From: a virus
DNA: 64,000 nucleotides
Strand: one strand, 5' to 3'
IMG/VR virus record: IMGVR_UViG_3300027972_000007
Location: 32,001 to 96,000 of that record
Part shown: piece after piece, positions 15,589 through 32,012 of the stretch
How positions within the stretch are numbered: position 1 is the first letter of the stretch
Layout: every line of letters begins with the position of its first letter
The notes under the pieces: model-generated
The model's input: only the letters and a program-made list of their open reading frames with translations
Databases searched by the model: none
What the model was told of the DNA's origin: nothing
Position numbers and translations under genes: made by a program

Positions 15589-17616
15589 ATGTCTTTGCTA
15601 AATTTCAATATCGTGACTGAAAGTGGGCTGAACTATATTACTAGCGCATATAACGGCGGTCCATTAATTGCAATAAAATATTTTTTGCCATGCTATGACT
15701 ATCGAATCGACCAATTTGTGCATGACGGCTCGGAAACTTCAGTTATTGCTTTATCTGCTTCTGTTTCAGCTACAGACACAACTCCATCAGGAGAAAAAAT
15801 ATGGAATATATCAACAGATAATGCATATACTTTATCTGATACTGACGATTTTGTAACAAGTGCAGGCGGAGAAACATTAGATGACAGCGGCGATCCTTGG
15901 ATATTAACTGATGCAGTAATTTCAAAAGAACAAAAAATCAATTTATATAATGGTGTACCTTTAAGTAATTATGTTTCTGGAAGTGATGTTGATGCTTCAG
16001 CCACTTCTAATGCTTGGGAAATTTATGATGGTGCTTTAGTTGTCGGAAATAATGATGTTCCTGCAGAAACTTCAGCAGGTTCAAATAGATATTTTCAAGT
16101 TGTTGATTATTATCCAGTTTCTGACGGTAGTGTTCTAAAGGGTAGTTTTAAATGTAGATTAAATAAAAAATTAGGTACTGTTAAATTTAACAAAATAGCA
16201 TTATATGTTGTCCAGGTAGATAATAATGGTGTGGAAACTTCTTCGCCTGCATTATTTGCAGAAGCTGTAATAGATTCGCCTATTACAAAAACAAATTATG
16301 GAACTTCGGGTTTTGAAGATATTGTTATTGATGTTCAGATTCAAATTGGGTCAGTTACTACAAATTTCAGTGATGTTTTTTATGCAACAAGCGCAGATTA
16401 TTGGAGTAGAACAGTAGGTGGAGTTTATTATTCTGAAAAAGTTGGTATTGGTGTTTTTGATGACGGCTATGAAGAAATGCAAAATAAATTACATATTAAA
16501 GAGTCTGATGCCACAAAGCCACAATTAAGATTGGATTATGGAATAGGAACTTCGGCATTAACTTCAGCAACATTTCATACTACGTCGGCAGGCAATTTAG
16601 AAATTACATTATCAAGTAATAAAGCGATTCAACCAAAAACAACCGATTCTATCGATTTAGGAACCAGTGCTTTGGAATATAGAAAAGTTTATGCAACATC
16701 AGCTAATTTTGATTATTTGGATGATTCCGGTGCTGGTAGTATTAAGGTAAATAAAAATGTAGTGCCACTCACGCATAATGCTTATAATTTAGGCACTTCG
16801 ACCAGTCGTTGGGAAAATGGTTATTTTAATATTTTAGAAAGTAGCGCATCATATTCTGATTATTATTGTCCGAACACTAATGCTGTATCATATGCCAGTT
16901 TAGGTTCGAGTAGCAGAATTTGGAAATATTTATTTGCTGATACTTTATCTAATCCTAATAGTACAATTAAAATTGCAGAAACAATAATTCCGGTGACTGA
17001 TGAACGTTGTGGATTGGGTGATTCAAGTCATGCATATAGTGCTGCGTATATTAAAGATTTATATTTATCGAAAAAAAATAATTTTAAAACTGGTGAGTGG
17101 TATTTTTTAGGTAATCATACTTGGTATCCGAATAATGGATCTTTCTGGAATGCTGTTCCAACAGGTTTCGATAAATCATATAGTAGTTTGTACAATGAAT
17201 CACAATGGGATTATGTTGATATTTGGAATTGGAAATTTAGTGTTATTGGAAAAACATTATTTATAAAATTTACATTTCAATTAGATAAAAGTTCAAATAG
17301 TTTGACTGGAAGAACTGCTAATATATGCAGAACTGCAATTTTAACAGGTTCTAATGAAGGAGATTTATTAAATTCTATAGTTTCTGATAAAGCTGCAGGT
17401 ATCGCTACAAGCAGTAATAATCATTGTTTTACTATTGTTAATCCACAAACATCCGATCCAGTATTAATTTTAATGGTTAAATTTTTTAATTCTGCTGAGA
17501 GTGGTTTTGATCAGAGAAATGGATTTTTATTTTCAATACAAAAATCTTCTTCTGCAGCATGGAATAGTGCAGCAAGATATTATGCCGCATGTACTTTAAC
17601 TTATGAATTATCATAA
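15589..17616 (+). CDS. Baseplate/short fibre protein
   Basis: N-terminal VTESGL..I motif; repeated P.T....LG....W fibre units. Confidence 0.65.
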   Translation: MSLLNFNIVTESGLNYITSAYNGGPLIAIKYFLPCYDYRIDQFVHDGSETSVIALSASVSATDTTPSGEKIWNISTDNAYTLSDTDDFVTSAGGETLDDSGDPWILTDAVISKEQKINLYNGVPLSNYVSGSDVDASATSNAWEIYDGALVVGNNDVPAETSAGSNRYFQVVDYYPVSDGSVLKGSFKCRLNKKLGTVKFNKIALYVVQVDNNGVETSSPALFAEAVIDSPITKTNYGTSGFEDIVIDVQIQIGSVTTNFSDVFYATSADYWSRTVGGVYYSEKVGIGVFDDGYEEMQNKLHIKESDATKPQLRLDYGIGTSALTSATFHTTSAGNLEITLSSNKAIQPKTTDSIDLGTSALEYRKVYATSANFDYLDDSGAGSIKVNKNVVPLTHNAYNLGTSTSRWENGYFNILESSASYSDYYCPNTNAVSYASLGSSSRIWKYLFADTLSNPNSTIKIAETIIPVTDERCGLGDSSHAYSAAYIKDLYLSKKNNFKTGEWYFLGNHTWYPNNGSFWNAVPTGFDKSYSSLYNESQWDYVDIWNWKFSVIGKTLFIKFTFQLDKSSNSLTGRTANICRTAILTGSNEGDLLNSIVSDKAAGIATSSNNHCFTIVNPQTSDPVLILMVKFFNSAESGFDQRNGFLFSIQKSSSAAWNSAARYYAACTLTYELS

Positions 17617-17626
17617 AAGGATATAA

Positions 17627-18136
17627 ATGGGCACGCCTAATTTTTTTAATACTACAAAATGGAGGTTGGAATTTTCTAATATTCCAACTATTACTAATTT
17701 AAACAATATGAAATTGTATAATGATTATGTAAGAAATTGTACAATACCAGAATTTGCATTAGATAATGATTACAGTAATTATGGTACAGTTATTTATAAA
17801 AGGCCTATTACAAAAGTTAATGAAAATTTAGGTAATTTGGATATTGAATTTAAATGTTCTGAAGATTTAGAAAATTATACTAATCTGTTTCAATATATTC
17901 AGTATTTAAAATATGGCGAAGATTTACCTGAAGATGTAATAGTAGATAATGTTATAAAAAATATTAGTATTGTAATATTAGATAATCAAAATAGAGATAA
18001 GAAAATAATTTATTTTACGAATGTTTATTTGAGTTCAATTAGTAGTTTAAATTTACTATATGGTGAAGAAATAGAAGTGACGTTTACTGCTTCATTCTTC
18101 TTTCAAGAGATGAAAATTAAAGATCCACAAGCATAA
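17627..18136 (+). CDS. Tail tube terminator / tail completion gp3-like
   Basis: FSNIP...CTIP...LDIEFKCSEDLENY...FTASF pattern of tube-fold proteins. Confidence 0.7.
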   Translation: MGTPNFFNTTKWRLEFSNIPTITNLNNMKLYNDYVRNCTIPEFALDNDYSNYGTVIYKRPITKVNENLGNLDIEFKCSEDLENYTNLFQYIQYLKYGEDLPEDVIVDNVIKNISIVILDNQNRDKKIIYFTNVYLSSISSLNLLYGEEIEVTFTASFFFQEMKIKDPQA

Positions 18137-18147
18137 AGAGGTAACAA

Positions 18148-18510
18148 ATGAATATTGTGAAAGTTGAATTGTTGAAAGATGCTAATGTAATTATTGAAAC
18201 ATTAGAAAGAATTGGTATAGCAAATATAGGTTTAAAAACATTATGGCCAAGCTGTTATTTGTATACTGAAAATGAAGAACATTTTATAGTTCATTTTAAA
18301 GAATTGTTTTTATTAACTAAAGAAAATAGCTATAATAATGTAAGTGAAAAAGATATTGAAAGAAGAAATGCTGTAATATGGAATTTAAAAAATTGGGGGT
18401 TGATTAATGTCGATGAAAATTTAATTGAGCCCCATAGTGAAAAAGTATTTGTATTGCAGCATAAAGAAAAAAGAGAATGGAAAATAGAACATAAGATTAA
18501 GTACAGATAA
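18148..18510 (+). CDS. regA: Translational repressor RegA
   Basis: ETLERIGIA, L.PSC, IVHFKELF, RRN..I..L..WGL motifs of T4 RegA. Confidence 0.9.
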   Translation: MNIVKVELLKDANVIIETLERIGIANIGLKTLWPSCYLYTENEEHFIVHFKELFLLTKENSYNNVSEKDIERRNAVIWNLKNWGLINVDENLIEPHSEKVFVLQHKEKREWKIEHKIKYR

Positions 18511-18518
18511 AATATTCC

Positions 18519-18551
18519 TTGACTTTTATTGCGTTATAATATATATTATAA
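18519..18551 (+). promoter_or_regulatory. Repeated sigma70-type phage promoter
   Basis: TTGACT-N17-TATATT overlapped by the palindrome TTATAATATATATTATAA; about 10 copies in the window. Confidence 0.8.
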
Positions 18552-18587
18552 TAAGAAAGAAAATAAACAATTAAAAGGAGAAAATAT

Positions 18588-18908
18588 ATGAATAAGAAAG
18601 TTGTAGATTATCTGAATGAGGATGTAAAGAAAACAATAAAATTATCCGATGTCAGAAAAAAGTTGGAAGAAGAAAATGTCGGCGATCAGATAACCACAAA
18701 AAACGGTAATATATTAGTAAGAAAAGGATATTTTTATTCGAGCGGGGGTAGCGAAGAAAAATTAGCTTCCAGAATTACTCCAATTTTAGATTCTATGAAT
18801 ATTAAATACACAATAGTTGATAAAGGAAATGTATGGAGATCTTTTAAAGGCGGTGCGCCCATAGCCAAACAGTCCCATTGGTATGTAGAAATAAAAATAA
18901 ATGAATAA
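18588..18908 (+). CDS. Putative internal head protein (capsid-targeting N-terminus)
   Basis: MNKKVVDYLNE leader shared with three other ORFs. Confidence 0.6.
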   Translation: MNKKVVDYLNEDVKKTIKLSDVRKKLEEENVGDQITTKNGNILVRKGYFYSSGGSEEKLASRITPILDSMNIKYTIVDKGNVWRSFKGGAPIAKQSHWYVEIKINE

Positions 18909-19037
18909 TTTAAATTCATATGAAATTATTATCTAATATTTGGAAATCTTTTATTCTATTAAACAAAGTTGTAATAGGATTTATTGTAGTTTTCTTTTAC
19001 TTTGATTATTTAATAATTTTTTATAAAGGACAATAAT

Positions 19038-19301
19038 ATGTCATTAGGTAGTAACAGAGTCGGATTGCCGGGAGTATACACCAATAAAGTTAAAGAAACA
19101 TCTCATAAGATTATTATTGGAGATAAAGAATATACATTAAAAATTAAAAATAAATCTCATATGGGTAATCCAGTTGGTTTTAATTATACTATTAATGATA
19201 GTAAAAAGATTTTTTGTAATCGTTTAACAAGAGATGAAGTTATTGAAAGTGCTAAAAAAAGAATAGAAAGTGGTAATATAATAGATTATTTAAAAAAATA
19301 G
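19038..19301 (+). CDS. Hypothetical protein
   Basis: AAGGA RBS; leader duplicated at 19628-19660. Confidence 0.6.
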   Translation: MSLGSNRVGLPGVYTNKVKETSHKIIIGDKEYTLKIKNKSHMGNPVGFNYTINDSKKIFCNRLTRDEVIESAKKRIESGNIIDYLKK

Positions 19302-19327
19302 ATTCTTTTCTTAAGGAGTATGGAGTT

Positions 19328-19582
19328 ATGAATAAGAAAGTTGCAGATTATTTAAATGAGGCAGCGAATAAAAAGAAAACTAAAGGAAAACTATTAACAA
19401 TAAAAACGGCAAAGACAGCAAAGGTTATTAGAAACATACAGCATCCAGAATGGGGAACAAAAAAGTTTAATTACAACGACCAACCACTTCCTAATGGTGA
19501 TGTTTGTAGTTCATTTGGAAGTGGGTCAGATTCGGCAGTTCTTTTCGAAAAAGACTATAAGTTTTGGGAAGTAGTCGCATAA
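19328..19582 (+). CDS. Putative internal head protein
   Basis: MNKKVADYLNE leader. Confidence 0.6.
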   Translation: MNKKVADYLNEAANKKKTKGKLLTIKTAKTAKVIRNIQHPEWGTKKFNYNDQPLPNGDVCSSFGSGSDSAVLFEKDYKFWEVVA

Positions 19583-19658
19583 AAGAAAAGTCCGATTTTT
19601 ACAAATATAATTTTCTTTTATACAACATATTTAATAATTTTTTATAAAGGACAATAAC

Positions 19659-19976
19659 ATGAATAAGAAAGTTGTAGATTATTTGAATGAAACGGTAAAT
19701 GATATACATAAAAGTAATACTAACGAAGAACAAATTTTAGAATATTTAGAGAAAAATAAAATAAAATTTAAAATTTTAAAGAATCATATTAAATTAGTTA
19801 ATTATGATTACAATAAAAAAGACAACGATTTTGTTGAAAATTTAGGCTATATGATAAAATATGATTCTAATAGTGATTATTTTAAATTATATCCAAGAGT
19901 TCAACAACATTTTAATTATCTACACTGGACTCAATATACAACAAGACGACAGCAAACACCGGAAGGTTCTAAATAA
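19659..19976 (+). CDS. Putative internal head protein
   Basis: MNKKVVDYLNE leader. Confidence 0.55.
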   Translation: MNKKVVDYLNETVNDIHKSNTNEEQILEYLEKNKIKFKILKNHIKLVNYDYNKKDNDFVENLGYMIKYDSNSDYFKLYPRVQQHFNYLHWTQYTTRRQQTPEGSK

Positions 19977-20038
19977 TTATAAAAATAAAAGAGTTTGGAT
20001 TGATGCTTATACTCAATTAATAAAGGTTTATCCTTCTT

Positions 20039-20644
20039 ATGAATTTGAATTTGGTTTGTTCAGATTTTTCTTGTCCTTGTTATAGTGAATGTTGTTTTCT
20101 TCCAACTTCATTATTCCCTTATTTTAATGAAATTACATTTTTATTTGTTGGCCAAGGCGGCGGTAGCGAAGAAAGAAAACAACGATTACCTTTTGTTGGT
20201 GATGCAGGAAAACGACTCCACGATCTTTTAAACTTGTGTAAAGAAACATATCACCATTTTGGTTTTGCCCTTTCTAATACTATTCGTAATAATCCGGAAA
20301 ATAATAGAGTTCCTACAAAAGAAGAATACGACCATTGTAAAATTCATCTTTATAAAGATATACAAAATTTAAGAGAATTTGGTCTTTCAGTAATAATTCC
20401 TCTTGGAAATAATTCTAAAGAATTATTATTAAATATTAAAGGTACTATGAAAAATTGTCACGGTAATATATATAAGTATAAAGATTACATTATAGTGCCA
20501 ACATATCATCCAGCAGCTATGATTAGACAAAATCCAATCTTTAATGAAAACAAATTAAGTGAATTCGAACAATGTTTTATTGATGATATGGGTAAAGTGT
20601 TTAAGTACTTAAAATTATATCCAAAAACCGATAAAATAGTATAG
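20039..20644 (+). CDS. Uracil-DNA glycosylase family 4-like
   Basis: FVGQGGGSEE...PFVGDAG, LG, TYHPAA motifs; N-terminal Cys cluster. Confidence 0.85.
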   Translation: MNLNLVCSDFSCPCYSECCFLPTSLFPYFNEITFLFVGQGGGSEERKQRLPFVGDAGKRLHDLLNLCKETYHHFGFALSNTIRNNPENNRVPTKEEYDHCKIHLYKDIQNLREFGLSVIIPLGNNSKELLLNIKGTMKNCHGNIYKYKDYIIVPTYHPAAMIRQNPIFNENKLSEFEQCFIDDMGKVFKYLKLYPKTDKIV

Positions 20645-20653
20645 ATTTTATAC

Positions 20654-20715
20654 CTAGAATTGAGGATAATTGGAAAGTAATATCAAAGTATATTAAAAAT
20701 TATCCTTGTTTTTAG
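20654..20715. repeat. 62-bp imperfect palindromic element, copy A
   Basis: CTAGAATTGAGGATAATT-26 nt-AATTATCCTTGTTTTTAG; homologous to 34567 and 36035. Confidence 0.8.
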
Positions 20716-20761
20716 ACTCAAAATAATATATATTTAATAGATATATTTTCAAAGGAGTTTT

Positions 20762-21019
20762 ATGTCTAATTTAAAAAAGTTGAATAAACCTGTATTGGCT
20801 GAAGGCGAAGTTACAGGCCACGCACACGTTATTGATGCAGATGTTGATGTTTATTTAGATGAAAGTAGCGGTTCACGCGAATTTCATCTCGACGAACCAG
20901 CCACAATAGTTCATGAAGAACACAACCCCATCACTATTGAAGAAATGGATGACTTCGAGGTTGGAAAAGTGCAAGAATATGACCACTTTCTCGAAGAATC
21001 GCGTAACGTTCAAGATTAA
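20762..21019 (+). CDS. Conserved small phage protein (LAEGEVTGHAH)
   Basis: His-rich putative metal-binding motif; strong RBS. Confidence 0.7.
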   Translation: MSNLKKLNKPVLAEGEVTGHAHVIDADVDVYLDESSGSREFHLDEPATIVHEEHNPITIEEMDDFEVGKVQEYDHFLEESRNVQD

Positions 21020-21031
21020 TTTTTTGGTATT

Positions 21032-21811
21032 ATGATTAAAATACTTTCAGGCTGGAGCAATCCCGGAGGGAGTACAACAAGTTGGATTAACCTAACTAAT
21101 GAATTAAATAGAGTAGGTTATCCGACTTGTTTATATGGCCCTCATAATTATCATATTGATAAGTGTAAAAGTAATTTTTTAGCATGTTTAAAAATTAACA
21201 ATGAAGATAGAATAATAATTCATTTTTTAAAACCACAAACCATAATTTGTAAAAAATATATATTTAGTTCGCACGAACAAAATATATTTCCAATATCGAA
21301 TATAAATTATAAAATATGTGATAAAATTCATTATGTCAGTCAATGGCAAAAGGAATACCATAATATTGATCATCCATATTTTATAATTCCTAATATTGTT
21401 GAAAATTTAAAAATATCAAATAAACCAGATAAAATATTTGGTATTATTGGTAGTATTGATAGAAATAAAAATGTTCATAAAAGTATTGAAAGAGCTATTA
21501 ATGATGGGGCTAAAAAAATACTTATTTATGGTATGGTTACTGATCAAAAATATTTTATGGAAGAAATTCAACCTATTATTAAAAAATATGGTAATATTGA
21601 AATGAAAGGTTTTTGTAATGATAAGCAAAAAATGTATGATTCGATAAGTAGAGTATATCAAGATAGTGAAATGGAAAGTTGGGGATATATTCGAGCGGAA
21701 TGTATTAAAACTGGAACTGAATTTTATGGCAATAAAACAACGGAAAAAATAGATATTTGGAATACAGATAAAATAATTGAGGGATGGTTAAAAGAAATGG
21801 AGATTTTATGA
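21032..21811 (+). CDS. Glycosyltransferase (GT-B, family 4-like)
   Basis: N-terminal PGG, VS..QK, IPN, G.I...KN, ESWG...AE motifs. Confidence 0.75.
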   Translation: MIKILSGWSNPGGSTTSWINLTNELNRVGYPTCLYGPHNYHIDKCKSNFLACLKINNEDRIIIHFLKPQTIICKKYIFSSHEQNIFPISNINYKICDKIHYVSQWQKEYHNIDHPYFIIPNIVENLKISNKPDKIFGIIGSIDRNKNVHKSIERAINDGAKKILIYGMVTDQKYFMEEIQPIIKKYGNIEMKGFCNDKQKMYDSISRVYQDSEMESWGYIRAECIKTGTEFYGNKTTEKIDIWNTDKIIEGWLKEMEIL

Positions 21812-22197
21812 ATAATAAATCATACAAATTAGGTTTTAAAAGAACAGGCCCAGCATTAGAAGATATAAAAAAAGAATTAGAAACAAAATCAAATAATACC
21901 GACGATTTTATTACGCCAGATTTGAAAGGCGTAAATCCAGATCTTTCCGAAATAAATATTAAAAATGTAGAATTTACTGACGATTCGGATGCAGTCAATT
22001 ATCCATCGCATTATAATAAAGGCGGTATCGAAGTAATAGATTTTATAATGGCATGGTTTACTGATGATTATTGTTTGGGAAATGTTTGCAAATATATTGC
22101 AAGAAGCAAACACAAAGGTAAAGAATTAGAAGATTTAAAGAAAGCACAATGGTATTTGAACAAAAAAATTAATTTTTTAACTAATGCAAACAAATAA
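21808..22197 (+). CDS. DUF3310-like protein
   Basis: [16 protein letters not shown]...GNV.KYI.R..HKG..LEDLKKA.WYL; start moved to the ATGA overlap. Confidence 0.8.
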
Positions 22198-22417
22198 TAT
22201 ATTACCAATAGAAGAAATAGATCCGGAATTTGCTACTTTAATTAAACAGGTAGCGAATAAAGAGTTACCTGCAATTGTTTTTAATGATAAAGTATTTAAA
22301 ACAATTAATGGCAAAATAGTTGGTGAAATTGTTGATAATATATTAAAAATAGGTAGAAATGAATTATGCCCTTGTAATAGTGGAAGGAAATATAAAAAAT
22401 GTTGTGGTGGAAAATAA
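22184..22417 (+). CDS. SEC-C motif protein
   Basis: [20 protein letters not shown]. Confidence 0.85.
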
Positions 22418-22638
22418 AGAATATAATTAATAAAATCAGATGGCAAATAAAGATTTTGTGGTGGTTTGCAATTGATTTCATTAATGGAAGATGATTAGCA
22501 TCTGTTTTAACATGGTGGAATTTAAAACACTATTTTTATATTCTCATATAGCAGGATTTAGTATAGCAACAATATTATTTATTATATTTATTGTATTGTG
22601 GTATTTAATAACAATTTTAATAAAGAGAATTAATCATA

Positions 22639-22920
22639 ATGAATGGAATAATTAGTAAGTATAATTTAGCATTCAAAATAGAAAACAACATAGAAGTAAC
22701 TTATATAGAAGTACCTAAAGGTTCAATAATTCTAAAAGCCGATAACGAGAATAACCAATTGTATTTTTATATATTAACAACCGATTCTAAAAAAATGGAA
22801 ACATTAAAAATAGTAGCATACCGCAATAATATAAAATATGATTTTGCTGGTAGTTATATAGATTCAATAACAATTACATATAAATTTGAAGATTTAATAT
22901 ATCATTTTTTCGTGGAATAA
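22639..22920 (+). CDS. Hypothetical protein
   Basis: Intact ORF within the operon. Confidence 0.55.
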   Translation: MNGIISKYNLAFKIENNIEVTYIEVPKGSIILKADNENNQLYFYILTTDSKKMETLKIVAYRNNIKYDFAGSYIDSITITYKFEDLIYHFFVE

Positions 22921-22922
22921 AA

Positions 22923-23438
22923 ATGGCTAATATATTTTTTACATCTGATACACATTTTGGTCATTTAAATAAAAGAGGAACAGGAATTATTGATTATTGT
23001 AAAAGGCCATTTAAAGATATAATAGAAATGGATAACGCATTAATTGAAAATTGGAATAGAAAAGTATCGATGTATGATATAGTATATCATTTAGGAGATT
23101 TTTCTTTTTATAATTTTTCAATAGCTAAATTAAATGGTTATATTCAATTCATAAAAGGTAATCATGATGCTAAAAAATGGCCTGATTTCGCAGTAGTAAA
23201 ATTTAAAGGAAAGAAAATATTATTACGGCATAAACCTTTTGAAAAATATGAAGATATTTCATATCCTCAATGTGATATTATATTTTGTGGGCATGTACAT
23301 GAAAAATGGCTGTTTAAAATATGTAAAAGTTTAAATAATGAAAGTAAATTAATGATAAATGTTGGAGTAGATATGTGGAATTTTGAACCAGTTACATTCG
23401 ATGAAATAATGAAAAATGTAAGAATAAGGAGTATGTGA
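22923..23438 (+). CDS. Calcineurin-like metallophosphoesterase
   Basis: SDTHFGH, HLGDF, GNHD, GHVH motifs. Confidence 0.9.
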   Translation: MANIFFTSDTHFGHLNKRGTGIIDYCKRPFKDIIEMDNALIENWNRKVSMYDIVYHLGDFSFYNFSIAKLNGYIQFIKGNHDAKKWPDFAVVKFKGKKILLRHKPFEKYEDISYPQCDIIFCGHVHEKWLFKICKSLNNESKLMINVGVDMWNFEPVTFDEIMKNVRIRSM

Positions 23439-23439
23439 T

Positions 23440-23973
23440 ATGAATAATGAACATGTAGAAATTCTTAAATCTGGTGTTGCAGAATGGAATGAGTGGAGAA
23501 AAGAAAATCATAGTGTAATTCCTGATCTGCAAGGTGCTAATCTGCGGGGTGCTAATCTGCAGGGTGCTGATCTGTGGAATGCTAATCTGCAGGATGCTGA
23601 TCTGCAGGGTGCTGATCTGTGGAATGCTAATCTGCAGGATGCTGATCTGCGGGGTGCTAATCTGCGGGGTGCATATCTTTCCCGTGCAGATCTTCTGAGA
23701 AGTCAGTATCAAATATCAAATTTATTACATGGAATATGTTGGGGCGAATTAACTAAAGAATTAACTCTCGAACTAATGCGTAGAGACGCAATAATTTGTG
23801 GAGTTGAAAAAATGAATAAATGGGCAAAAGGGCACAATTGTCCATTTAAAACAGGTTTTGAAAGGGATTTTTTCTTTAATCAAAATCAAAAAATTTGGAA
23901 ACCAGGTAAACCAAAACTTAATGATTTACAACTATTTAAAGCTTTATGTAATGTAAAGAAAATAAAGATTTGA
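23440..23973 (+). CDS. Pentapeptide-repeat protein
   Basis: A(N/D)LxG repeats; 15-nt DNA periodicity at 23522-23700. Confidence 0.9.
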   Translation: MNNEHVEILKSGVAEWNEWRKENHSVIPDLQGANLRGANLQGADLWNANLQDADLQGADLWNANLQDADLRGANLRGAYLSRADLLRSQYQISNLLHGICWGELTKELTLELMRRDAIICGVEKMNKWAKGHNCPFKTGFERDFFFNQNQKIWKPGKPKLNDLQLFKALCNVKKIKI

Positions 23974-24408
23974 AATGAATTACTTCTATACCCTATATAT
24001 ATAATTAAAACAAAGGAGTTGAAAGTGAAAGGTCTTTTCATAAAATTAATATTCATTTTTGTATTTGCTTTATCGTATGCTTCATTAACAGATTATATTA
24101 TATCCCATAAATTAATAACAGAAGCAAGAAGTCTAATAACGTTAGGATTTTTTATGGGAATAACATGGGCAATTATTTACGATATTATTTTTACCATCAC
24201 AAAACACAATCATTATAAATAATTAAAATAAATCTTGTTTTTATTAGAAAAATTTATTGAACATTGACAACCCCAAATTACCAGAATGATTAATGAAGCA
24301 GCAAAAGAATTCGTAGATAATAAATTTTGGGAAATTACTGAATTATTAAATTCTTTAAAAGAACAAGTTCAAAATAAAATAGAAGATAAATAAAAAGGAA
24401 TATGTGGT

Positions 24409-24627
24409 ATGCCAATTAACACTAAAATAATAGAAATTTCAAAAAAGATTCTAAATTCTAATGGTAATATGCACGATAGAGTCGAAAAAGTAATTGAACC
24501 ATATAATTTAAGTGACGACGAATTATCTCAATTAGGATTTGAGTTAATAACTGATGTTATTTCAATTTTTTGCCAATTAAAAATTATGCGCGGAATAAAG
24601 ACTAGAAAATCACAGGGTTATAAATAA
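24409..24627 (+). CDS. Hypothetical protein
   Basis: RBS-preceded ORF between two copies of a ~40-bp repeat (24214, 24619). Confidence 0.45.
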   Translation: MPINTKIIEISKKILNSNGNMHDRVEKVIEPYNLSDDELSQLGFELITDVISIFCQLKIMRGIKTRKSQGYK

Positions 24628-24680
24628 TTAAAATAAATCTTGTTTTTATTAGAAAAATATATTATATTTAATGTTGATAT

Positions 24681-24695
24681 TATAAATAATTAAAA
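24681..24695 (+). promoter_or_regulatory. T4-type late promoter TATAAATA(ATTAAAA)
   Basis: Same motif at 6186, 24214, 24619, 27685; one-mismatch variants at 15549 and 24941. Confidence 0.7.
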
Positions 24696-24706
24696 AGGAT
24701 GGAAAT

Positions 24707-24931
24707 ATGAAGTCAGTATTAGAGTATTTAAATGAGAGTACAAAATATGTATCAGTAGATACAAACGCATTCGAAAATGAATATGGAAAGAAACCAAAAG
24801 GAATAGCCGGATGGGCATTTAAAATTAATGGGAAAGAATTTTCTTTTAGTGGTAGTTATTCAGAAGCAGTAAAAAAAGCTAAAGAAAGAGCATCTAATAT
24901 GGGTGTATATTCAATAACACTTATGATTTAA
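24707..24931 (+). CDS. Putative internal head protein
   Basis: MKSVLEYLNE leader directly behind a late promoter. Confidence 0.6.
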   Translation: MKSVLEYLNESTKYVSVDTNAFENEYGKKPKGIAGWAFKINGKEFSFSGSYSEAVKKAKERASNMGVYSITLMI

Positions 24932-24967
24932 TACAGTAATGATAAATAATTAAAAAGAGAAGATATT

Positions 24968-25093
24968 ATGATAAAAAGTACAAGACGAATTACAATTACC
25001 TCGAAACCATGTTTAACCATATCATGGCTCGAAGGTGTATTGTTTTATCATAATGATAAAGCAAATCAACCCAGAATGCTTTATATGAAATAA
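24968..25093 (+). CDS. Putative attenuator leader peptide of the tRNA array (41 aa, all 20 amino acids)
   Basis: MIKSTRRITITSKPCLTISWLEGVLFYHNDKANQPRMLYMK*; its 3' end forms the antiterminator arm. Confidence 0.7.
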   Translation: MIKSTRRITITSKPCLTISWLEGVLFYHNDKANQPRMLYMK

Positions 25094-25123
25094 GTAAAAA
25101 ACTTATAAAATTTCATATAAAGC
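25078..25123 (+). promoter_or_regulatory. Antiterminator hairpin
   Basis: GCTTTATATGAAAT (25078-91) is perfectly complementary to ATTTCATATAAAGC (25110-23); overlaps the terminator 5' arm. Confidence 0.7.
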
Positions 25124-25158
25124 CTTTAAAGAAGAGATTTTTTAAAGGCTTTTTTATT
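25119..25158 (+). terminator. Intrinsic terminator/attenuator upstream of the tRNA array
   Basis: AAAGCCTTTAAAGAA-GAGA-TTTTTTAAAGGC followed by TTTTTTATT. Confidence 0.85.
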
Positions 25159-25199
25159 AGTTCTTTGACATTTATACAATTTCGCCAAGTACATTTTTT

Positions 25200-25276
25200 C
25201 GGGGCGTATTGTAATCTGGTAACACTCCTGACTTGGGATCAGGAAAGTGAGGGTTCAAATCCCTCTGTCCCGACCA
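25200..25276 (+). tRNA. tRNA-Pro(TGG)
   Basis: Cloverleaf; CCTGA-CTTGGGA-TCAGG; CCA encoded. Confidence 0.9.
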
Positions 25277-25279
25277 TAT

Positions 25280-25363
25280 TGACGAGTAGTCTAATGGCAA
25301 GACAGCAGGCTGTTAACCTGCCGCAGAATAATCTGTTTGGAGGTTCGAATCCTCTCTCGTCAG
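25280..25363 (+). tRNA. tRNA-Asn(GTT) with long variable arm
   Basis: GCAGG-CTGTTAA-CCTGC, G73, extra CAGA/TCTG stem; no CCA. Confidence 0.8.
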
Positions 25364-25374
25364 CTAAATTATAT

Positions 25375-25446
25375 TGCAGAGTACAGTATTGGTAACTGAG
25401 GAGCCTCATAAGCTTCTTTATATGGGTTCAAATCCCATCTCTGCTA
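25375..25446 (+). tRNA. tRNA-Met(CAT), 1:72 mismatch
   Basis: GGAGC-CTCATAA-GCTTC; U1/U72 unpaired as in initiators but lacks three G-C pairs; no CCA. Confidence 0.75.
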
Positions 25447-25452
25447 AATTTC

Positions 25453-25527
25453 GACTGAGTGGTGAAGTCCGGTTAACACGGTAGTCTGCAAAACTATTAT
25501 TCACAGGTTCAAATCCTGTCTCGGTCT
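25453..25527 (+). tRNA. tRNA-Cys(GCA)
   Basis: GTAGT-CTGCAAA-ACTAT, U73; no CCA. Confidence 0.85.
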
Positions 25528-25531
25528 TTTC

Positions 25532-25617
25532 GGAGGATTAGGATAATTGGTAATCCAACAGTCTTGAAAACTGTCGTCAGAAATGATTTGAGGGTTCGAG
25601 TCCCTTGTCCTCCGCCA
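25532..25617 (+). tRNA. tRNA-Ser(TGA)
   Basis: CTTGAAA loop, long variable arm, GCCA end. Confidence 0.9.
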
Positions 25618-25625
25618 AATTATAT

Positions 25626-25701
25626 GTTGGAGGTAGTTCAAAGGTAGAACATTGGATTGTGGTTCCAATAGTTGCGGGTTCAAATCCCGTCTTCCAACCC
25701 A
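25626..25701 (+). tRNA. tRNA-His(GTG)
   Basis: G-1:C73; TTGGA-TTGTGGT-TCCAA. Confidence 0.9.
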
Positions 25702-25707
25702 AAATAT

Positions 25708-25783
25708 AGCGCTGTCGCCAAGTGGTTAAGGCGCCACTCTGATAAGGTGGTATACAACGGTTCAACTCCGTTCAGCGCTACCA
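25708..25783 (+). tRNA. tRNA-Ile(GAT)
   Basis: CCACT-CTGATAA-GGTGG; CCA. Confidence 0.9.
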
Positions 25784-25789
25784 AATTTT

Positions 25790-25865
25790 GCTGGTGTAAC
25801 TCAATTGGTAGAGTAGTAGTTTTGTAAACTACAAGTTAAGTGTTCGAATCACTTCATCAGCTCCA
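25790..25865 (+). tRNA. tRNA-Thr(TGT)
   Basis: GTAGT-TTTGTAA-ACTAC; CCA. Confidence 0.9.
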
Positions 25866-25873
25866 AATTACAT

Positions 25874-25948
25874 GGGTCATAACAGTCGGACGGGCGAGTT
25901 TCCTTTGCAAGGAAATTTTGATGGGTGGAACTCCCATATGATCCACCA
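25874..25948 (+). tRNA. tRNA-Ala(TGC), non-canonical D/T loops
   Basis: G3:U70 present; TTTCC-TTTGCAA-GGAAA; T-loop TGGAACT. Confidence 0.75.
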
Positions 25949-25954
25949 AATTAA

Positions 25955-26030
25955 GCGGATATCGTTTAGTTGATAAGACCTCTGCCTTCCAAGCAGGTGA
26001 CTGCCGGTTTGAATCCGGCTATCCGCACCA
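25955..26030 (+). tRNA. tRNA-Gly(TCC)
   Basis: TCTGC-CTTCCAA-GCAGG; CCA. Confidence 0.85.
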
Positions 26031-26074
26031 ATATATACAGGTTCAACTCCTGTTAATCATATTAATTTTAATAT

Positions 26075-26174
26075 ACGTCTGTAGCTCAACGAATAGAGCG
26101 CTTGGTCACGAACCAAGGACTTCTCAGCCACGAACTGAGGACTTGTGAGGGTTTGAATCCTTCCAGACGTACCA
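26075..26174 (+). tRNA. tRNA-Arg(ACG) with duplicated anticodon arm
   Basis: ACGTCTG/CAGACGT acceptor; two tandem stem-loops, both with ACG. Confidence 0.75.
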
Positions 26175-26175
26175 C

Positions 26176-26252
26176 GCGACGGTCGATTAGTTGGTTAAGT
26201 CTCTGGATTGTCAATCCAGTGATCGTGGGTTCAAATCCCATTCGTCGCGCCA
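26176..26252 (+). tRNA. tRNA-Asp(GTC)
   Basis: CTGGA-TTGTCAA-TCCAG; GCCA end. Confidence 0.9.
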
Positions 26253-26258
26253 AATCAT

Positions 26259-26343
26259 GGAGACGTATGTTAATGGTAAACAACAGGTTTGCTAAACCTG
26301 CGTCTGAAAAGATTTCAGGGTTCAAATCCCTGCGTCCCCGCCA
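26259..26343 (+). tRNA. tRNA-Ser(GCT)
   Basis: TTGCTAA loop; long variable arm. Confidence 0.9.
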
Positions 26344-26350
26344 AGTTTAT

Positions 26351-26423
26351 GCAGCAATATATCAATTGGTAGATAGCCACTTTGCCAAGGTGGAGGTTGC
26401 CGGTTCAAGCCCGGTTTGCTGCT
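26351..26423 (+). tRNA. tRNA-Gly(GCC)
   Basis: CCACT-TTGCCAA-GGTGG; no CCA. Confidence 0.85.
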
Positions 26424-26438
26424 TTTATAAAAATTATC

Positions 26439-26528
26439 GGGCAGGAGGTCAGATATCGGTTGGCTGCACCAGACTGTAAATCTGGATTCTGTAATAGAAC
26501 GTGGAAGGTTCAACTCCTTCTCTGCCCA
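26439..26528 (+). tRNA. tRNA-Tyr(GTA)
   Basis: CCAGA-CTGTAAA-TCTGG; long variable arm; no CCA. Confidence 0.9.
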
Positions 26529-26545
26529 TAAGTTCTTTGAAAATT

Positions 26546-26620
26546 GCCCCCATAACTCAGATGGTTTAGAGTAATTCACTTTTAATGAATAAGTCGTCAG
26601 TTCGAATCTGACTGGGGGTA
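26546..26620 (+). tRNA. tRNA-Lys(TTT)
   Basis: ATTCA-CTTTTAA-TGAAT; no CCA. Confidence 0.9.
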
Positions 26621-26630
26621 TAAAATTATT

Positions 26631-26705
26631 GGGCAAGTGGCGAAATTGGTATCCGCGATAGTTTCAAAAACTATACAAATAAGAGTTCGAATCTCTTCTT
26701 GCCCA
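26631..26705 (+). tRNA. tRNA-Leu(CAA), short variable loop
   Basis: ATAGT-TTCAAAA-ACTAT, Leu-type D arm, A73; no CCA. Confidence 0.8.
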
Positions 26706-26715
26706 TAAAGTTTTT

Positions 26716-26797
26716 AGCCTGATGGTGGAATTGGCATACACGCAAGTCTTAGAAACTTGTTCTGAAAAGATTGAGAGTTCAAATCTCTCTCGGGCTA
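26716..26797 (+). tRNA. tRNA-Leu(TAG)
   Basis: CAAGT-CTTAGAA-ACTTG; long variable arm; no CCA. Confidence 0.85.
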
Positions 26798-26808
26798 TAT
26801 AAATTATT

Positions 26809-26885
26809 GCTCCTGTAGCTCAAATGAATAGAGTAAGACGCTTCTAACGTCGAGGTTGCAGGTTTGAATCCTGCCAGGAGTACCA
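26809..26885 (+). tRNA. tRNA-Arg(TCT)
   Basis: GACG-CTTCTAA-CGTC; CCA. Confidence 0.9.
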
Positions 26886-26902
26886 TTATAAAAGAAGGAC
26901 GT

Positions 26903-27493
26903 ATGTTACAGACACTGGAATTAAATAAAGCATCAGTTCCTGTTGGAATTATATCTGCTAAAAGAGCATTAATAGCAGTATGTAATAAAAGAGCTATTGC
27001 TTTAGCAAATTATGATAAAGTTTATCATTCATCGGATTATATATGCATGGATTTGAATTTAGTAAAAGGAAAGAATTCATTAATATCAATTCCTATTCCA
27101 TCAGTCATACGATTTATTGATTCTGATTTCATGCCAAAAAGATATACAAATATTTTACCATTTAATCGCATGAATGTGTATATAAGAGATAGTGGAACTT
27201 GTTGTTATTGTGGTAAAAAAGTATCCATAAGTAATTTTACTTTTGATCATGTTATACCAAGGGCTGATGGAGGAAAAAGCTGTTGGGAAAATGTTGTGGT
27301 GAGTTGTGTAAAATGCAATAATCAAAAGGATAGAATTCCATTACATAAATTTTCAAAGAAACTTATAAAAAAACCATATGTACCACATTTAACGAAAGCA
27401 GCACCAGAACATTTAGTAAGTAGAATAGCAATGGAAATACCACATGAAACATGGTTAGATTATATTTACTGGAGAATAGAATTAGAAGAGTAA
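26903..27493 (+). CDS. HNH endonuclease
   Basis: RDSGTCCYCG...TFDHVIPRADGG...WENVV..CVKCN..K; start moved to the ATG after GAAGGA because the track start lies inside tRNA-Arg. Confidence 0.9.
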   Translation: MLQTLELNKASVPVGIISAKRALIAVCNKRAIALANYDKVYHSSDYICMDLNLVKGKNSLISIPIPSVIRFIDSDFMPKRYTNILPFNRMNVYIRDSGTCCYCGKKVSISNFTFDHVIPRADGGKSCWENVVVSCVKCNNQKDRIPLHKFSKKLIKKPYVPHLTKAAPEHLVSRIAMEIPHETWLDYIYWRIELEE

Positions 27494-27508
27494 TTTCATG
27501 AAAAATAA

Positions 27509-27583
27509 GCTCCCGTAGTGCAGTGGTTAGCACGTCTGGTTTTCAACCAGAGAATCTCGGTTCAACTCCGGGCGGGAGTACCA
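27509..27583 (+). tRNA. tRNA-Glu(TTC)
   Basis: TCTGG-TTTTCAA-CCAGA; CCA. Confidence 0.9.
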
Positions 27584-27713
27584 TATTTTAATGAAATCAC
27601 ATTTCTATTTGTTGGCTAGAGAAATAAGGATAATATTATAATTTTTAACAAAATAAATTAAATCGAAATAATAATTATTATTTTTATAAATAATTAAAAA
27701 AGGAAAGATATAC

Positions 27714-27899
27714 ATGCTCAATCAATTAAATCAAATTAAAAGTAAAGTTTGTTTGTGTGATAAAACATTAAAAGAATTAACTAAAGAATTAGATATGGAT
27801 TATAACAGTTTTATTAGAATTATTAACGGTTACCAGAAGATTCCCGAAGGATTTTTTCAAAAAGTAGAATTAGTTTTAAAAACATGGAAAGAAAAATAA
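27714..27899 (+). CDS. Small HTH (XRE-like) protein
   Basis: TLKELTKELDMDYNSFIRIING HTH pattern; abuts tnpB. Confidence 0.65.
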   Translation: MLNQLNQIKSKVCLCDKTLKELTKELDMDYNSFIRIINGYQKIPEGFFQKVELVLKTWKEK

Positions 27900-27900
27900 T

Positions 27901-29151
27901 ATGAGATTGGTTTATAAATTCAACTTTACTGATACTTCAGATTATTTGAATAATCTTTGTATTATTTCAAAGAATTTATATAATCAGGCCAATTATTTGA
28001 TTAAACAAGAATTAAATACTAATAAAAAGTGGTTACGTTATAATGATTTAGATAAAATAATGAAAGTAACTAAAAATCTTGAAAGTAATATTAATTATAG
28101 ATTACTTAAATCTCATGTTGCTCAACAATGTTTAAAGTTATTAGATAAAAATTGGTCGTCTTTTTTTATGTCAATTAAATGTTGGAAAGCAAATAAAGAT
28201 AATTATAAGGGTATGCCCAAATCACCTTATTATCTTAAAAAAGATAAGAATTTATTAATATATACTAATCAAGTTTCTAAAATAAAAGATAATAAAATTT
28301 ATCTTTCTAAAGATTTTACTATAGATATACCTAAGTATAAAGATTTTAGTAAATTTCAACAGATAAGAGTATTACCTACATATATCAAAAATCAATTTGA
28401 AGTAGAGATAATTTATAATCAAGACATAAAGAATGAAAATCTGAATTATGATAAGTATTCTTCTATTGATTTAGGATTAAATAATTTGGTGTCTTTAGTT
28501 TCCGAAAACAAACCAATATTAATTAATGGAAATATACTTAAATCATATAATCAATTATACAATAAACAAAAAGCTAAATTATATTCAGTTAAAGATAAAA
28601 TGAAGAATAAACATTACACAAGGAGACTATATGAGTTAGAAAAGAATAGAAATAATTACGTCAAAGATTATTTACACAAAGTTTCAAGATTAATGATTAA
28701 TTATTTAATTAAGAATAAGATTGGTAATTTAGTTATAGGTCACAATAAACAATGGAAAGACTCCATTAATATAGGGCATAAAAATAACCAGGCTTTTGTT
28801 ACTATTCCTCATTCACAATTAATTAATTATTTAACATATAAATCTGAACTTTGTGGTATTAAGGTGCAAGAAGTTGAAGAGAGTTATACATCTAAATGTG
28901 ATTCTTTAGCTAATGAAACTATAGAAAAACATGAAGTATATTTAGGAAAAAGAATAAAAAGAGGATTATTTCAAAGTTCGTCAAGAAAATTAATTAATGC
29001 AGATGTTAATGGAGCTTTGAATATAATGAGAAAAGTAGTTGGTAATTCTTATGCAAATAAGATAATCAATAGTGGGTTCTTGTTTAACCCAGTAAAGATA
29101 AGGAATCTGTTTTCAAACTCTTTGCAAACTTGTTTATTAAAGATAACATGA
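27901..29151 (+). mobile_element. tnpB: IS200/IS605-superfamily TnpB (RNA-guided nuclease), no TnpA
   Basis: SKNLYN.ANY, IDLGLNNL (RuvC-I), DYLHKVSR, YKSELCGI, EESYTSK, INADVNGALNI (RuvC-III). Confidence 0.9.
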
Positions 29152-29170
29152 GTGAGACGCTCTAAATTAT

Positions 29171-29246
29171 TGGGATGTCGCCAAACGGTTAAGGCACTGG
29201 ACTTTGAATCCAGTATTTGAAGGTTCGAATCCTTCCATCCCAGCCA
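29171..29246 (+). tRNA. tRNA-Gln(TTG)
   Basis: CTGGA-CTTTGAA-TCCAG; GCCA end. Confidence 0.9.
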
Positions 29247-29254
29247 TTCTTTAC

Positions 29255-29330
29255 ATAAGCGTAATTCAATTGGTAGAATACTGGTCTCCAAAACCAGCAG
29301 TTAAGAGTTCGAGTCTCTTCGCTTATGCCA
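29255..29330 (+). tRNA. tRNA-Trp(CCA)
   Basis: CTGGT-CTCCAAA-ACCAG; GCCA end. Confidence 0.9.
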
Positions 29331-31785: not shown

Positions 31786-32012
31786 TCATGCAATTTAAAT
31801 CAGTATCTTATAATTATGCTTTAGATACAAATCTATCTACTAATTTTAAAGGTAGCAATATTCCTCATTCAGATATAGTTAAGAATATTACAACAGAAAT
31901 GATCAATAAATTAATTGGAAAGATGAGTGATATGGATATCCCTGATATTCTATATATCTATCAATATGACTGATAAACCATATTTGCAACAAGAGCAAGA
32001 AGAAAAAGAAGA

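Follow-up and report, generated by a model that had tools for sequence, protein, structure and literature searches.

Enterobacterial leader attenuators are known from trpL, hisL, leuL and pheL, from the thr leader with its Thr and Ile codons and from the ilvGMEDA leader with its Ile, Leu and Val codons; they regulate biosynthetic enzymes and their leaders display runs of one to three amino acids. The leader of pheST (pheM) senses a single amino acid by means of Phe codons, while T-boxes bind uncharged tRNA directly, without an open reading frame (ORF). We know of no tRNA genes controlled by either the pheST leader or T-boxes. The present report concerns a 64,000-nucleotide (nt) window of a viral contig (IMG/VR record IMGVR_UViG_3300027972_000007, positions 32,001 to 96,000; positions below are those of the window unless stated otherwise), in which a 41-codon leader ORF precedes an array of phage tRNA genes. 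The locus is probably a translation-coupled transcription attenuator that gates the main tRNA block, with a leader that samples nearly all codons read by the phage tRNAs.

The locus (Table 1) shares with the enterobacterial attenuators a short leader ORF, an intrinsic terminator, an alternative helix taking part of the 5' arm of this terminator and a decisive influence of ribosome position, the latter as modelled here. In contrast to them, it precedes tRNA genes, and its leader spells nearly every amino acid with roughly one codon each. Tandem runs of control codons, by which the trp, his and thr attenuators are recognised, were absent. Its antiterminator holds the base of the terminator only (5 to 9 of 15 nt), and only a weak 1:2 'protector' helix is present, so that an untranslated leader should also read through. 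A preliminary description of this DNA had assigned it a trp/his-type attenuation geometry; the layout and, in models, the dependence on ribosome position agreed with this assignment, the tandem control codons did not, and the overlap of the antiterminator with the terminator was short.

In its proposed logic the locus also resembles the pheST leader and T-boxes, where a shortage in decoding or charging leads to readthrough and so raises the supply of a part of the translation machinery. Positions 24500-25200 gave no match to any Rfam family, be it a T-box, a riboswitch or a known leader. The vmlR, msrD and mef/mel leaders are described as general sensors of translation speed, in which a slow ribosome opens an antiterminator (PMC9226507, PMC10314930, PMC4335068). 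Leaders of this antibiotic-resistance type respond to drug-bound ribosomes at specific peptide motifs, whereas the apparent design of the phage leader is a codon variety matched to the tRNAs downstream. Full-text literature searches retrieved papers on phage tRNAs that counter tRNA-targeting defences and none on the control of tRNA arrays by leader peptides, in line with the earlier remark that no phage attenuator of this kind was known to have been described. The proposed mechanism is that of classical attenuation; the target, tRNA genes, and the design of the leader are new.

Two structures overlapped at the 3' end of the leader. A perfect helix of 14 base pairs (bp) joined 25078-25091 to 25110-25123, and its 3' strand shared the bases AAAGC with the foot of the terminator, the stem of which was followed by TTTTTTATT. 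The stop codon of the leader lay 25 nt before the terminator, and the terminator stem 47 nt 5' of the first tRNA, a tRNA-Pro starting at 25200. Perfect inverted repeats of at least 12 bp with loops of at most 40 nt numbered 14 in the whole genome against about three expected by chance; two of these 14 were the 14-bp helix and the terminator, with their mutual overlap of 5 nt. Both the pairing over 14 bp, including the terminator bases, and the strong intrinsic terminator before the first tRNA had been announced in the preliminary description, and both were found as announced.

The antiterminator duplex reached -17.4 kcal/mol and was stronger than those of 50 out of 52 ordinary gene-end terminators (96 %) considered with the same gap. 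Duplex energy was used for this comparison in place of the number of terminator-arm bases sequestered in folds of the transcript before the terminator is complete, a measure which was rejected as non-discriminating, 75 % of ordinary gene ends sequestering at least 5 nt. The antiterminator enclosed a small inner hairpin (AUAAGU/ACUUAU), as was likewise the case in most of the other folded leaders of the survey presented below.

The leader ORF was the only + strand ORF of at least 20 amino acids in its gap. Its content was confirmed as first reported: all 20 amino acids were encoded by 29 different codons, including TTA, CTC, TTG and CTT for Leu, AGT, TCG and TCA for Ser, and AGA and CGA for Arg. 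The proposed comparison with random windows showed this to be rare, since only 0.22 % of 41-codon windows from the long ORFs of the genome, and 0.47 % in a simulation with independent and identically distributed residues, contained all 20 amino acids. Among 352 ORFs of 35-50 amino acids, the leader alone did so. Nineteen amino acids were already present in the first 33 codons (P=0.003), Gln being codon 34, and at least 29 different codons were expected with P=0.023.

Cognate codons for 21 out of 23 phage anticodons were found in the leader, against 14.5 +/- 2.0 in the null distribution (P=0.0012), and all 14 amino-acid types which ARAGORN detected in the main tRNA block were covered. Apart from itself, the leader peptide had no homologue among 5.8 billion proteins. 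As a separate observation, codons 27-34 (25046-25069), directly 5' of the antiterminator strand, read Tyr-His-Asn-Asp-Lys-Ala-Asn-Gln, seven of the eight being NAN codons; an estimate from amino-acid composition indicated that a run of this type is expected in about 1 % of windows of this AT-rich genome.

The influence of ribosome position was modelled by folding the transcript as it stands before the 3' arm of the terminator emerges, with a mask of 30 nt in place of the ribosome. This procedure recovered the known logic of thrL, trpL and leuL from Escherichia coli. At the phage locus, the 14-bp helix formed with a probability of ~1.0 without ribosome or with a ribosome stalled at codons 10-33. 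Only an A site at codon 35 or beyond, as with codon 36 or the stop, abolished it. According to these folds, codons 1-33 can therefore signal and the last eight, which lie under the antiterminator strand or too near it, cannot. The idea that a stall at any earlier codon frees the antiterminator was thereby retained for codons 1-33, which cover 19 amino acids, and abandoned for the remainder. Absence of translation also yielded the antiterminator in the models, which would make the element a sensor of decoding speed in general.

Equilibrium folding gave a different picture. A shortened hairpin coexisted there with the full terminator, and forcing the 14-bp helix cost 3.1 kcal/mol. The weak helper helix (25056-25063 with 25077-25084) captured the released antiterminator strand in these folds and tipped the equilibrium to the terminator (P 0.99), but lost to the 14-bp helix as long as the 3' arm of the terminator had not emerged. 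Equilibrium folding favoured the terminator in genuine E. coli attenuators as well (thrL, trpL, hisL and leuL); this kind of test is therefore uninformative on the switch, and the argument against a switch that could be drawn from it was dropped. In equilibrium models with a ribosome, stalls at codons 28-33 lowered the terminator probability most, the differences of 1-3 kcal/mol being fragile. The 11-bp hairpin within the ORF, present in the minimum free energy fold, is possibly an RNA polymerase pause hairpin.

The layout was not confined to this phage. A sample of 119 unrelated IMG/VR loci (~1 Mb in total), fetched by a pattern for three tandem tRNAs, contained 123 arrays of at least four tRNAs, 105 of which had enough upstream sequence; the array of the window itself was excluded. 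A terminator within 150 nt upstream was detected in 34 of the 105 arrays, and 31 of these 34 also had an ORF of 10-80 codons ending near the terminator. A narrow layout, with an ORF of 19-43 codons and a stop 21-29 nt before the terminator, was displayed by 17 arrays (L078, L084, L085, L090, L095, L104, L112, L114, L121, L146, L151, L156, L172, L182, L187, L189 and L194). Three families of homologous leader ORFs could be distinguished among them, namely L078/L085/L112/L146/L189 (and L084), L121/L151/L156/L187 and L104/L182. The leader of the window had no sequence similarity to any of these families, and its likeness to them was architectural only.

The leaders of the survey followed the content of their arrays. 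For arrays with at most ten amino-acid types, leaders contained 96 % of the array amino acids against 76 % after permutation, none of 20000 permutations reaching the 96 %, and the share of matching leader residues was 0.47 against 0.31. This was seen in a homologous family whose leaders end with G(R)GMS, where the flanks were conserved while the middle differed and spelled the amino acids of the array: an Ile/Pro/Trp/Tyr array was accompanied by PIYWYPI, a Cys/Pro/Ser/Trp array by CWCPS or CWPP, and a Gly/Ile/Met/Pro/Ser/Trp array by IIGWPS. Arrays of 16-18 tRNAs had leaders with 18-20 distinct amino acids in 32-43 codons, so that a leader with all 20 is to be expected for an array of 22 tRNAs.

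The RNA structures of these leaders were also comparable. Antiterminator energies had a median of -20.5 kcal/mol, against -9.75 kcal/mol for the 52 gap-matched terminators at ordinary gene ends (Mann-Whitney p=1.2e-8), and the overlaps with the terminator bracketed the value found in the window. The 5' strand of the antiterminator was formed by the last codons and the stop in about half of the other folded leaders, and lay 24-38 nt upstream of the stop in the L078-type family. In one family, pairing in the antiterminator and inner hairpin amounted to 99 %, and at four pairs both partners had changed, a result that none of 500 shuffles reached; slid controls paired at 34-58 %. The first tRNA of L156 and L187 begins directly after the U-tract, and those tRNAs can therefore arise by readthrough only.

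Globally, the locus of the window agreed with the survey leaders in ORF length, gap, the origin of the antiterminator in the 3' part of the ORF, coverage of the array, the presence (in some) of a boxA-like site, and energies and barriers. It differed from them by its T4-type late-promoter-like box and by the genome that carries it, that of a deep-branching T4-like myovirus using Shine-Dalgarno sites. The search upstream of other arrays, which had been suggested at the outset for related phages, yielded no relatives of this leader, but 17 unrelated arrays with its layout and one family with covariation. In Pseudomonas phage PAK_P4, promoters are annotated in the tRNA region and a leader of this type is absent, and the solitary tRNAs of the present phage genome had no leader either.

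Directly after the terminator, the window displayed a 12-mer which was identical at 9 of 12 positions to the boxA of the E. coli rrnB leader. In L090 and L182, this 12-mer again stood 14-16 nt 5' of the first tRNA. The motif G[TC]TCTTT[GA]A[ACT]A had 43 matches in 2.3 Mb, 12 of which were located within 60 nt upstream of a tRNA on the same strand (4.3 % expected), often 1-18 nt before it; this corresponded to a ~6.5-fold enrichment. Besides the window, occurrences near tRNAs were noted in L090, L094, L104, L152, L155, L172, L179, L182 and L188. Compared with the boxA-NusB/NusE system of rrn operons and lambda, the phage site, which recurs inside the array, would act downstream of the attenuator and not as the switch; no boxB or boxC was identified.

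The preferred mechanism may be set out as follows. Transcripts would begin at the late box at 24941, and also at the early promoter 6.6 kb upstream, and would carry the 41-codon leader. A ribosome keeping pace would reach the last codons or the stop and cover 25074-25091, which would leave 25110-25127 free; the terminator would then form and transcription would end 42 nt before tRNA-Pro. If the ribosome lagged anywhere in codons 1-33, for example at a codon whose decoding tRNA is scarce, the 14-bp helix would form first and occupy the foot of the terminator stem. Some of the polymerases would then read through and transcribe the boxA-like site, followed by the tRNA array. Since the leader has a codon for nearly every phage tRNA, the resulting loop would deliver tRNA on demand with feedback, termination resuming when decoding is fast again. 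The analysis shows the sequence elements, their rarity, the modelled effect of ribosome position and the recurrence of the layout in other phage contigs; that the leader is translated and coupled to the polymerase, in which direction and how strongly the switch acts, and what triggers it in the cell are inferred.

Several points weigh against an attenuator of this kind. The leader has Val and Phe codons, for which no phage tRNA was found, while the Gly-UCC and Leu-UAG tRNAs have no leader codon under strict wobble. Attention was drawn to the amino-acid diversity after the fact, among a very large number of scanned windows, and the Shine-Dalgarno sequence is weak. Of the 15 nt in the terminator arm, the antiterminator holds just 5, or at most 9 if a weak extension is counted; nucleation of the terminator's upper 10 bp is unhindered, and the full terminator wins at equilibrium without ribosome (P=0.99). 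The barrier on the path to the terminator was 4.2 kcal/mol, compared with 8.7-15.6 kcal/mol for thrL, hisL and leuL and 5.8-6.5 kcal/mol for trpL; the barriers of the other phage leaders, 3.6-14.3 kcal/mol, enclose this value. The 17 leaders of the survey represent only about 9-10 independent lineages, and some of their arrays are cut by locus ends. Finally, the searches described below yielded no relatives of the phage, and the covariation reported above comes from other phage contigs.

As an alternative, the ORF would be a small late gene of the ordinary kind that closes an operon, an explanation that appears rather unlikely. The 41-amino-acid product would then be a protein like any other, the terminator would close a unit extending from 18.5 to 25.1 kb, the 14-bp hairpin would protect the 3' end of the mRNA or serve as a processing site, and the tRNAs would stem from constitutive leak-through or from a weak promoter. 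The promoter context speaks in its favour, as the succession of promoter, Shine-Dalgarno sequence and ATG is that of many small phage genes. The late-promoter-like box reported at 24941 was indeed present, and the 170-kb genome has 19 copies of its core ATAAATAATTAAA, nearly all of them 10-40 nt upstream of a Shine-Dalgarno sequence and ATG. The T4-type box reads TATAAATA and the copy of the leader GATAAATA; the 18 other copies carry T where the leader's box, alone among the 19, has G in front, although a box with this G also stands before the tail sheath gene, at another place in the genome. The leader ATG stands 13 nt behind this box.

The leader is moreover the last in a run of small genes without a terminator before it. 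A scan of 17500-25200 found no convincing + strand terminator between the early promoter at 18519 and 25119, so that early transcripts should reach the leader too. These early promoters form a module of TCTTGACTT, ~10 nt, TATAATATATATTATAAT and a conserved A-rich 5' untranslated region, present in about 19 copies in the genome. The region is also plastic: an exact 275-bp duplication placed one copy of a cassette upstream of the tail sheath gene and the other upstream of the leader, whose promoter box takes its first 11 nt from the right end of the duplicate. Only the 3' half of the promoter region is therefore the leader's own, and the duplication points to recombination between promoter boxes as a means of shuffling cassettes. 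About one ORF with all 20 amino acids is expected per genome by chance, and the coexistence of terminator and shortened hairpin at equilibrium would equally fit such a gene.

An ordinary gene has nevertheless no need of a hairpin that extends by 5 nt into the terminator arm, which adds nothing necessary to stability and has an estimated (not computed) chance of ~0.1 %. A competing helix of this strength was displayed by only 2 of the 52 ordinary gene ends. In its 25-nt gap, its codon coverage and its boxA-like site, the locus follows a layout found again ahead of arrays of unrelated phages, with leaders matched to these arrays, and the peptide has no homologue.

A tRNA array with its own promoter past the terminator, to the expression of which ORF, hairpin and terminator would be irrelevant, is improbable. 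A perfect TTGACA is found at 25165-25170, with a flank like the -35 half of the phage early promoters, and could be combined with a TACATT or with the TACAAT at 25175-25180. The TACATT is however 19 bp off, which would put the start on or inside the tRNA, and the TACAAT is just 4 bp off. At this site the promoter scan gave no call, the long -10 block conserved in all early promoters of the phage is absent, and neither consensus promoter type of the phage has a copy between the leader terminator and tRNA-Pro. In L090 and L182, tRNAs follow the 12-mer that contains TTGACA after 14-16 nt, and tRNA-Lys (26545) follows a variant of it after 2 nt, leaving no room for a promoter. TTGACA was accordingly rejected as a -35 box, recurring too near tRNAs and without the -10 block, and is best read, from its sequence and placement, as part of a boxA-like RNA site. 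As such a site would arise only on transcripts that pass the terminator, it makes an independent promoter less likely.

A genuine RNA switch set by some other factor, in which a protein, uncharged tRNA, Nus or phage antitermination factor would stabilise helix or terminator and the ORF would be incidental, is likewise improbable. Antiterminator and terminator are near in energy, so that a small input could tip them, a boxA-like site follows, and the translation of the leader is itself a prediction. The absence of Rfam matches noted above stands against it, as does the use of stop and last codons as the 5' strand of the antiterminator in about half of the other folded leaders; in other phages, leader amino acids track the array content, which is sensible only if the ORF is read. 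An IS200/IS605 end hairpin of the TnpB gene situated 2.8 kb away is also unlikely.

The coordinates of these and neighbouring features are gathered in Table 1. The preliminary description had counted 22 tRNAs. ARAGORN detected 19 on the + strand in 25200-29330, Rfam raised the number to 21, and one more was recognised by eye only, which makes the count plausible. A further module, consisting of a late-promoter box followed directly by TAAATCTTGTTTTTATTAGAAAAAT, was seen to recur; it is able to form a small AATAAA/TTTATT hairpin and has no start codon at the usual distance.

Table 1. Features at and around the tRNA leader; positions refer to the window unless marked as genome.
Feature	Position	Strand	Remarks
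Early promoter, consensus, sigma-70-like	18519-18547	+	~19 copies of TCTTGACTT..TATAATATATATTATAAT in the genome
Early promoter copies	18519, 29355, 29628	+	further copies outside the window
Early promoter copies	35634, 35962, 38270, 41814, 44964, 54490, 62788	-	further copies outside the window
Late-promoter box + TAAATCTTGTTTTTATTAGAAAAAT module	24215-24255, 24620-24660		another copy at genome 132520 (-)
275-bp exact duplicate	24677-24951	+	of genome 22845-23119 (L002); cassette with a gene for 74 amino acids between two late-promoter boxes
Late-promoter-like box, T4-type, GATAAATAATTAAAA	24941-24955	+	motif family; G variant before the tail sheath gene
Shine-Dalgarno-like AGAGAAG, weak	24956-24962	+	5 nt upstream of ATG; spacing as in other genes behind the same box
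Leader ORF	24968-25093	+	41 codons, all 20 amino acids
Hairpin within the ORF	25040-25064	+	11 bp; minimum free energy fold
Helper helix '1:2', weak	25056-25084	+	8 bp, 25056-25063 with 25077-25084
Antiterminator, 5' strand	25074-25091	+	last codons (Leu Tyr Met Lys) and first base of the stop; 14 bp perfect from 25078, 3-bp extension past one mismatch
Inner hairpin	25090-25106	+	AUAAGU/ACUUAU, enclosed by the antiterminator
Antiterminator, 3' strand	25110-25127	+	25119-25123 (AAAGC) and, weakly, 25125-25127 common to the terminator 5' arm
Intrinsic terminator	25119-25158	+	15-bp stem 25119-25152, three G-C pairs at base, 4-nt loop, then TTTTTT
boxA-like site GTTCTTTGACAT	25160-25171	+	as RNA GUUCUUUGACAU; boxA of the E. 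coli rrnB leader is GCTCTTTAACAA
Main tRNA block	25200-26885	+	16 tRNAs by ARAGORN, 2 by Rfam, 1 tRNA-Ala-like by eye
Ala(UGC)-like tRNA sequence	~25866-25950		by eye only; missed by ARAGORN
Arg(ACG)-type tRNA	26075-26171		inserted second stem-loop; Rfam, 47 bits; missed by ARAGORN
Tyr(GTA) tRNA	26439-26528		Rfam, 34 bits; missed by ARAGORN
Second boxA-like site GTTCTTTGAAA	26532-26542	+	2 nt upstream of tRNA-Lys (26545)
HNH endonuclease gene	26903-27493		interrupts the tRNA region, upstream of tRNA-Glu, Gln, Trp
Distal tRNAs Glu, Gln, Trp	27509-29330	+	without a leader of their own
Small ORF (helix-turn-helix), late-promoter-driven, and TnpB (OrfB_IS605 / Cas12f-like)	27686-29151		interrupts the tRNA region

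The viral contig to which the window belongs comprises 170 kb with 27.7 % G+C and is an estimated 74 % complete. Its gp6-like baseplate protein shared only ~23 % identity with its counterparts from T4-like cyanophages and coliphages, and the phage is therefore a deep-branching T4-like myovirus. A blastn search against 50,697 phage records gave no relative. Scans seeded with neighbour proteins of 74, 259 and 848 amino acids gave zero matches, an exact 26-mer of tRNA-Pro was unmatched elsewhere, and relatives of the phosphoesterase were at most 43 % identical and without synteny to the phage. An independent JGI contig (L066) was identical to it and ended inside the 275-bp repeat; in the protein collection, the phage was present in a single JGI sample (3300009085). 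A pentapeptide-repeat protein (23440-23973) had 60 %-identical relatives of its C-terminal 88 residues in short ENA metagenome contigs, which had no other gene in common with the phage and offered unrelated contexts.

The role of tRNA arrays in phages and the way they are expressed are debated; among the proposals are codon compensation, substitution for degraded host tRNAs and escape from anticodon nucleases (PMC10264068, PMC11464382, PMC11555353). The attenuator could be extended into a counter-defence alarm, in which an anticodon nuclease or another tRNA-depleting defence would stall the ribosome at the matching codon and thereby switch on the whole set of replacement tRNAs, codon-matched leaders being a general but unrecognised control of arrays in large phages. 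This extension is doubtful, and anticodon nucleases as the trigger are pure speculation; within such an alarm, the run of codons 27-34 may cover the usual nuclease targets.

If the attenuator is real, the phage would measure the decoding capacity of the cell and supply tRNAs on demand, and classical attenuation would be extended from amino-acid biosynthesis to tRNA genes. The recurrent layout could help to annotate tRNA operons in uncultured phages, and a leader could predict which tRNAs were once carried by a fragmentary contig.

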